Shown: one piece after another, positions 1,936 through 2,079 of the stretch | Position numbering within the stretch: the stretch's first letter is position 1 | Layout of the letters: every line of letters begins with the position of its first letter | Origin: Escherichia phage vB_EcoM_ASO1B | Strand: one strand, 5' to 3' | DNA length: 64,000 bases | Sequence record: MZ726792.1 | Notes under the pieces: model-generated | Seen by the model: only the letters and a program-made list of their open reading frames with translations | Told to the model about the DNA's origin: nothing | Database searches by the model: none | Translations under genes and position numbers: made by a program

Positions 1936-2079
1936 AATTATCTTTGTAGATAAGTTATTAAGCTTACCTGTGAGTATGCGACCACAAAGGGTGAAAGGGT
2001 AAATTCTAGATTTAAACCCAAAAAGGCACATCGCTACAGACCTTAAGCAAGTCTGGGTAGCTTATCTACAAAGATAATT
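1936..2079 (+). repeat. perfect 19-bp inverted repeat (AATTATCTTTGTAGATAAG / CTTATCTACAAAGATAATT) bracketing 106 bp
   Basis: 1936-1954 is the exact reverse complement of 2061-2079. Confidence 0.8.

Follow-up and report, generated by a model that had tools for sequence, protein, structure and literature searches.

An inverted repeat in the tRNA region of Felix O1-like phages marks a conserved structured RNA within a Ro60/Y-RNA-like module

Escherichia phage vB_EcoM_ASO1B (sequence record MZ726792.1) carries, at positions 1936 to 2079 of the 64,000-nucleotide (nt) stretch of DNA that we analysed (the window), a perfect inverted repeat with 19-nt arms. In a preliminary description of this DNA, made from its letters alone, the repeat was viewed as a duplex that RNase III might cleave in the transcript of a tRNA region or, alternatively, as a miniature inverted-repeat mobile element or a recombination site. 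We find that it belongs to a new family of structured RNAs in a classical phage, residing within a Ro60/Y-RNA-like module: the element holds its position in a constant genomic context, is under selection at the level of RNA, contains a helix, a hairpin and a pseudoknot that covary, and is devoid of coding potential. In our reading, to which we assign a probability of about 0.6, the two arms of the inverted repeat pair to form the helix that closes a conserved non-coding RNA of ~145 nt, which would be excised from a tRNA precursor, with the long helix serving as the processing stalk.

The window phage is a Felixounavirus whose positions 1700 to 2400 are 100% identical to those of Escherichia phage vB_EcoM_ASO1A, and Salmonella phage Felix O1 shares with it, at 100% identity, the 166 nt around the inverted repeat. 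Felix O1 counts among the classical phages for Salmonella diagnosis and therapy, and coliphages related to it are in wide use; the 'tRNA region' of Felix O1 has so far been annotated as tRNAs plus blanks or spurious open reading frames (ORFs). The region around the element in the window comprises 25 tRNA genes, all of them on the + strand. The features of immediate relevance (P1 to P4 denote RNA helices) are:

3–827, + strand: 3' part of a Ro60-like gene (DUF2828 + DUF7788/vWA), 1.1 kb upstream of the element
1159–1236, 1325–1390, 1714–1792 and 1800–1937: Y-RNA-like units U1 to U4, also present in the related loci L032 to L038
1800–1937, + strand: U4, which includes a tRNA-like module and whose lower stem (UUAC/GUAA) shares 2 nt with the start of P1
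1936–1959, + strand: 5' strand of the closing helix P1, consisting of the 19-nt arm (1936–1954) and a U.G-containing extension; supported by covariation
1962–1966, + strand: proposed 5' strand of a pseudoknot, GCUUA, which changes in step with its partner, the P4 loop, across lineages
1969–1986, + strand: putative hairpin P2, UGUG-AGUAUGCGAC-CACA, in which the conserved motif G(A/G)GUA(U/G)GC is found; read from the sequences
1997–2019, + strand: putative hairpin P3, GGGUAAAUU-CUA-GAUUUAAACCC, around a conserved AUUCUAGAUU
2037–2055, + strand: hairpin P4, CAGAC-CUUAAGCAA-GUCUG, whose loop positions 2044–2048 (UAAGC) are the proposed 3' strand of the pseudoknot
2056–2079, + strand: 3' strand of P1, found by repeat search, folding and covariation
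2080–2083, + strand: 4-nt tail UAAU linking the helix to tRNA-Lys(UUU)
2084–2159, + strand: tRNA-Lys(UUU), directly 3' of the element

Sigma-70-like promoters are predicted at positions 846–874 and 937–966, and the next strong one lies at 2334–2362. Since these two promoters are situated upstream and no terminator-like site was found on the + strand between them and the promoter at 2334, the element falls inside a predicted operon that extends from tRNA-Pro to tRNA-Ile. Our literature search turned up no usable transcriptomic data for Felix O1.

The primary features of the repeat are as first described: the arms 1936–1954 and 2061–2079 are exact reverse complements enclosing 106 nt, the repeat starts 1 nt past the sequence GGTCTGG (1928–1934), and an inner hairpin, CAGAC-CTTAAGCAA-GTCTG, is present at 2037–2055. 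A repeat search of the window returned somewhat longer arms (1936–1957 and 2058–2079; 22 nt, 95%), and on the + strand the RNA helix reaches 24 base pairs (bp; 1936–1959 with 2056–2079), with three U.G pairs within 1955–1959/2056–2060. For the 156-nt region, the folding energy is -48.3 kcal/mol (z = -5.3), a value that none of 200 shuffled sequences attained.

To assess P1 and P4 by covariation, we aligned 21 sequences under the guidance of a model; the set covers both forms of the element, A and B (see below), as well as loci L032 and L033. Standard pairs occupy 99.6% of the cells of the 27 pairs in the two helices, and 10 pairs have changed on both sides; in controls with slid partners, 29–45% of the cells were paired and no more than two pairs had changed on both sides. 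The ends of the element pair over 22–26 pairs in each of the nine lineages, compared with a mean of ~4 in dinucleotide shuffles, and this pairing persists while merely 4–14 of 22 bases are identical between the P1 5' arms of distant lineages. Across the 10 sequences analysed P1 has 19–26 pairs, and in the window its 24 bp are free of defects. The pairs of P1 include 29 G.U pairs and only two A.C mismatches. Because G.U pairs would become mismatches on the opposite strand or in DNA, the object under selection is an RNA helix on the + strand, the strand of the tRNAs; the covariation and this asymmetry together support the view that the duplex forms in a transcript of the tRNA region.

The element was matched with blastn in 236 phage records, each time at the same site, and a pattern scan of IMG/VR added 26 contigs, in which it is always flanked by the last Y-like unit on one side and tRNA-Lys(UUU) on the other. 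This site is common to the type A (Felix O1-like) and type B (Mooglevirus, bumzen, fBSPA4) phages and to five more distant lineages, which we reached by following the protein encoded upstream down to 53–63% identity and which comprise metagenomic contigs and Yersinia phage P778. In the distant lineages, the element measures 134–166 nt, has the same architecture and stands, each time, directly 5' of tRNA-Lys(UUU). An ungapped architecture scan, designed to detect a hairpin whose 9-nt loop reads C......AA and which adjoins an arm pairing with an upstream segment, yielded a single such element in the window and a single one per locus in five relatives; the elements of L034 and L037 escape it because their helices have internal loops. 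Homology is supported by a covariance model (R1), which recovers the elements of L032 (E = 2.6e-14) and L038 (E = 0.003).

No Rfam 15 family overlaps positions 1936–2079 (E <= 5 over 5.6 kb; E <= 10 over 0.9 kb), and both R1 and the architecture scan drew a blank near the Ro60-like genes of Klebsiella phage FBKp34, Aeromonas phage LAh_6, Cronobacter phage S13 and a 143-kb metagenomic phage. The RNA family thus looks confined to Ounavirinae-like phages, as judged with R1, a narrow model. A homologue of host or prophage origin was also considered; 5,426 E. coli genomes gave no match.

Beyond the hairpin within the enclosed 106 nt, which the preliminary description had recognised, the core has a conserved pseudoknotted fold that was missed there, as was the Ro60-like and Y-RNA-like surrounding. 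P4 (5–6 bp with a 9-nt loop) joins the 3' strand of P1 with a gap of 0 nt in all 10 sequences analysed; depending on the lineage, its loop reads CUUAAGCAA, CUUUAGCAA, CCUUAGCAA, CUUGAACAA or CUUUAGUAA. In nine of these 10 sequences, a Watson-Crick complement of 5–7 nt to the P4 loop occurs 0–4 nt past the 5' strand of P1. The partners after P1 and in the loop are GCUUA and UAAGC, GCUAA and UUAGC, UUGUUCA and UGAACAA, or UUACUA and UAGUAA, respectively. The pseudoknot and P4 together are 89.5% paired with nine pairs changed on both sides (slid controls at most 41% paired), figures that favour the structure in that they come from an alignment (A5) made by hand in the best-pairing register. Given this register, and given that L036 has no clear partner at the expected place, we regard the pseudoknot deduced from these comparisons as having good support, short of proof.

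The motif G(A/G)GUA(U/G)GC is the second conserved feature of the core and is found in a hairpin loop in the Felix-like forms. In L032, P2 would read GGGG-AGUAUGCGGC-CCCU, a compensatory stem around the same loop (a comparison made by reading, with no formal count), and in the P3 of phage EC6 A-U pairs are replaced by G.U pairs. Within form A, substitutions and indels are confined to the linkers and spare P2, P4 and the pseudoknot.

In topology, though in topology only, the RNA resembles tRNA and the tRNA-like domain of transfer-messenger RNA (tmRNA): a terminal helix is followed on its 3' strand by a hairpin of 5–6 bp running into it, and the P4 loop touches the strand after the 5' arm, as the T loop touches the D loop. 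The likeness ends there, since the helix has 24 bp as opposed to 7, the 9-nt loop lacks the T-loop consensus, a CCA end is missing, and neither ARAGORN nor Rfam reports a tRNA. We also considered mimicry of an anticodon arm. P4 of the window (CAGA/UCUG, CUU..AA) resembles the tRNA-Lys arm CAGA-CUUUUAA-UCUG, but the stems differ and do not co-vary in L034 to L038, and we rejected this idea.

From these features we propose the following course of events. The promoters near 846 and 937 would drive transcription of the RNA together with the rest of the phage tRNA operon. P1 would enclose two or three small hairpins in a compact core together with P4, which would be stacked on P1 and have its loop in the pseudoknot. 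Going by standard tRNA processing, the RNase P cut at 2083/2084, which matures tRNA-Lys, would set the 3' end. The RNA would be freed from U4 either by a nuclease specific for double strands, most probably RNase III of the host, or by cuts in the flanks. The released and folded core would then be a stable RNA that acts in trans, probably bound to protein, with the Ro60-like protein encoded 1.1 kb upstream as the obvious, yet unproven, candidate partner.

The notion of a processing stalk draws on well-studied precursors. In E. coli, the 16S and 23S rRNAs are released from their precursors via RNase III stalks. The small cytoplasmic RNA of Bacillus subtilis is excised by RNase III from a precursor stem (PMC1935012). 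P1 resembles these stalks in being a helix of about two turns that flanks a structured RNA in a longer precursor and whose length is conserved while its sequence drifts; it differs in that the enclosed RNA is small, the precursor is a tRNA operon and cleavage is a prediction. An RNase III substrate calls for about two turns (at least 20 bp) of mostly uninterrupted double-stranded RNA, and P1 offers them. With 24 defect-free bp in the window and 19–26 bp in all lineages, the helix makes cleavage by RNase III plausible. The proposed role as a stalk is suggested by the great length of the helix, its near-perfect pairing and the constancy of that length, and by the precedent of stable RNAs freed by RNase III (PMC1935012). 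A further indication is a second element in the window that shares the base of the stalk but not the core:

3141–3230, + strand: another element with a long stem, situated immediately 5' of tRNA-Leu(UAG); the base of its stem (UCUUUUUAGAG...CUCUAAAAAGA) is similar to that of the focal stem

This second element forms a stem of ~24 bp (z = -5.6) around ~40 nt, and its base can also be read as UCUUUUUAGAG...CUCUAAAAAGAUUUAAU. Its counterpart in L032 (UCUUUGUAGAU...AUCUACAAAGG) has almost the focal sequence. The similar stalk sequence suggests that the stalk is functional in its own right. We also examined the motif at the base of the stems, TCTTTKTAGAK, as a possible dispersed site; it has 19 matches against 9.7 expected, scattered apart from those in the two stalk elements, and we abandoned this candidate. 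If P1 proves to be a stalk for RNase III, it would provide a clean example of how phages release products other than tRNAs from tRNA operons.

A phage parallel is known from T4, whose species 1 and 2 RNAs (rnaC/rnaD) are small stable RNAs that are co-transcribed with the phage tRNAs and freed by the tRNA-processing machinery. They are not known to be associated with a Ro60-like gene, and we found no relationship between them and the focal RNA in sequence or in Rfam.

Several points weigh against the excision of a functional RNA from the tRNA precursor. Its transcription, stability and cleavage sites are all inferred. The core is not constrained throughout, as the interiors of forms A and B differ strongly (55–58% identity). 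The element lacks the motif of the neighbouring Y-like units and is thus not specifically tied to the Ro60-like protein. The register of the pseudoknot alignment and the exception of L036, both described above, belong here as well.

The two forms, A and B, represent clearly distinct alleles. Phage fBSPA4 is 98% identical upstream and 64% identical within the element, so that the forms do not track their flanks; this speaks for recombination and not for transposition. A swap of the interior between otherwise nearly identical phages would fit an element that worked solely in cis, that is, if the helix recruited RNase III, or kept the folding of U4 and tRNA-Lys apart, and the enclosed RNA was then discarded. 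We consider such a purely cis-acting processing or insulator element unlikely, although it would account for several observations: the stalk, and not the core, is what the focal element and the one in front of tRNA-Leu(UAG) have in common, the helix is kept at roughly two turns, and U4 is without a downstream tRNA at which cutting by RNase P could create the 3' end of U4. A discarded interior is hard to reconcile with the persistence of the 9-nt loop (C-Y-U-N-N-N-N-A-A), the covarying pseudoknot and G(A/G)GUA(U/G)GC in phages whose Ro60-like proteins are only 53–63% identical, and with the placement of the changes in form A outside P2, P4 and the pseudoknot. It is the conservation of loops and pseudoknot that leads us to regard the released core as functional and not as waste.

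The ORF that ends at position 827 is composed of DUF2828 and DUF7788, and the full gene is present in locus L030 (1166–2581). Searches of the PDB with phmmer and with a profile of 25 sequences found no match to Ro60 for this protein. When an AlphaFold model (predicted local distance difference test, pLDDT, 84.8) was compared with the PDB, the top 11 matches were Ro60/TROVE proteins over the full length (E 1e-7 to 5e-6), among them Xenopus Ro60, Deinococcus radiodurans Rsr and the Ro60 of a Thermus phage. Judged by its modelled fold, the gene is Ro60-like. This result agrees with the designation of gp130 of the closely related phage Bas63, a homologue of the upstream protein, as Ro60-like in a preprint that reports that gp130 counters the ppl defence system (PMC11482910). 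The authors of that preprint guessed that Y RNAs are hidden among the tRNAs (PMC11482910).

The Y-like units consist of a covarying lower stem of 4 bp, a 3-nt A-rich bulge (AGA) opposite a single G, a covarying upper stem of 6 bp and the sequence WWUWCAGCAA. The upper stem has the form AGACCN/NGGUCU, and relatives covary (AGUGUC/GACACU, AGACUG/CAGUCU and others). We found 23 such units in eight related loci, compared with ~0.03 per locus in shuffled sequences; U1 to U4 are unannotated in all five annotated GenBank records inspected (ASO1A, Felix O1, Mordin, bumzen and fBSPA4). U4 has, on reading its sequence, a T arm and a loop-closed acceptor-like stem, with a partial Rfam tRNA match at 1826–1876, and its tRNA-like module is reminiscent of that in YrlA (PMC4201824). 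We consider U1 to U4 the likely Y RNAs for the Ro60-like protein of the phage. The candidates listed here, the focal RNA included, make the guess of the Bas63 preprint directly testable.

One could take the focal element as a further, non-canonical Y RNA acting alongside U1 to U4, a direct partner of the Ro60-like protein in which P1 would be the Ro-binding stem and the pseudoknotted core would tether an effector. Like the Y RNAs YrlA/YrlB and Yrl1/2 (PMC4201824, PMC12135203), it lies less than 4 kb downstream of a gene of Ro60 fold on the same strand (gene end at 827, element start at 1936, both on the + strand), forms a long stem from its 5' and 3' ends around a structured module and falls into a similar size class. 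The Ro60 of a Thermus phage binds two different phage-encoded Y-like RNAs (PMC12135203), and in L034 the 5' arm is identical at 22 of 26 positions to the 5' motif of that phage's own Y-like unit (0 of 2000 shuffles as good), with an AA/CC internal loop in the stem. This similarity is seen in L034 alone; in the window, the ends of the element are not significantly similar to U1 to U4. Moreover, a Ro-binding motif (GNCGAAN0-1G or CGAA) in a bulged stem, part of the definition of such RNAs (PMC4201824, PMC12135203), is absent from P1, which is a perfect helix in the window, and the AGA-AGACC...GGUCU-G signature shared by all of the neighbouring units is missing. The element also has no tRNA-like domain with T and D arms (no tRNA-type Rfam match at 1936–2079 at E <= 10, and none with ARAGORN), and it has a pseudoknotted core. 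Since it lacks the motif of the units and any significant similarity to them in the window, the element does not qualify as a Y RNA, and U1 to U4 fit that description far better; we therefore hold this assignment to be quite improbable.

A broader conjecture, which we offer tentatively and ourselves regard as doubtful, is that the RNA is a non-canonical partner of the Ro60-like protein or of a host factor in RNA decay or defence and that, as a pseudoknotted module of tRNA-like topology borne on a long stalk, it acts together with the Y-like RNAs to remodel host RNA metabolism or counter a defence system. If this were true, Felix O1-like phages would carry a Ro60 ribonucleoprotein system with several RNAs embedded in a tRNA operon.

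Homologues of the upstream protein were detected with tblastn in 709 phage records, including mycobacteriophages, Listeria A511-like phages, Vibrio and Campylobacter phages and others. The Ro60-like gene adjoins tRNA arrays or oversized 'tRNAs' in the Ounavirinae-like loci, in Klebsiella phage FBKp34 and in Cronobacter phage S13. The oversized 'tRNAs' (113–121 nt) lie just downstream of the Ro60-like genes in FBKp34 (L040, 8003–8116) and S13 (L042, 7896–8138), and they may be YrlA-like RNAs that were mis-called as tRNAs.

An element that operates at the DNA level, be it a miniature inverted-repeat mobile element, a recombination site or a protein-binding palindrome, has been largely refuted and has very little probability left. 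In its favour are the perfect 19-bp terminal inverted repeats, and the discordance between forms A and B and their flanks does show that recombination has occurred near the element. A mobile element is ruled out by its uniform placement: the comparison of relatives suggested in the preliminary description shows the element at the same site in essentially all relatives examined, without a single empty site among the 236 phage records and all of the metagenomic relatives examined, the very outcome that had been named as evidence against mobility. When up to three mismatches were allowed, a search of the 64-kb window for further copies of the 19-mer returned nothing besides the two arms (0.05 expected from shuffles), and the architecture scan finds one element per locus. 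The flanks (...TCTGGT and TAATGG...) contain no direct repeat that would represent a target-site duplication, and the absence of matches in E. coli genomes points the same way. The fixed site and single copy likewise dispose of a recombination site, and the arms of P1 have not stayed identical but diverge in a compensatory manner; in addition, the excess of G.U pairs over A.C mismatches would be meaningless for DNA.

That the element encodes protein has next to no likelihood: a 107-amino-acid ORF on the - strand (1708–2031) does overlap it in the window and corresponds in part to ORF94 ('unknown') of the original Felix O1 record, which annotates a - strand ORF here, but this ORF runs antisense through Y-like units, is missing in every other lineage and is omitted from newer annotations of close relatives. 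The initial statement that the enclosed DNA has no credible ORF therefore holds, as none is conserved across lineages.

The region around the element is a mosaic. In phage bumzen, a gene for an HNH endonuclease is located between tRNA-Ile and tRNA-Ser (L002, 2080–2478), and several relatives have an insertion of ~72–79 nt within the equivalent of window positions 1700–2400, outside of the focal element. Further downstream, Rfam calls a tRNA at 2567–2645 (31.7 bits), whose anticodon loop CUUCUAA would make it a tRNA-Arg(UCU); ARAGORN missed it in the window, and relatives have a tRNA-Arg annotated at the equivalent site. Downstream of the promoter at 2334–2362, the sequence GCAAACGACAAUGUUUUUCUGGCAGUAGCUUGA (2412–2444) translates into ANDNVFLAVA followed by a stop codon and resembles the SsrA tag ANDENYALAA. 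Matches of this region to the Rfam models for tmRNA and permuted tmRNA are weak (16 and 29 bits), and ARAGORN does not call a tmRNA there. The reading frame is kept in seven loci with synonymous changes (GAC/GAU, UGA/UAA), and the segment may be part of a divergent phage tmRNA-like gene.
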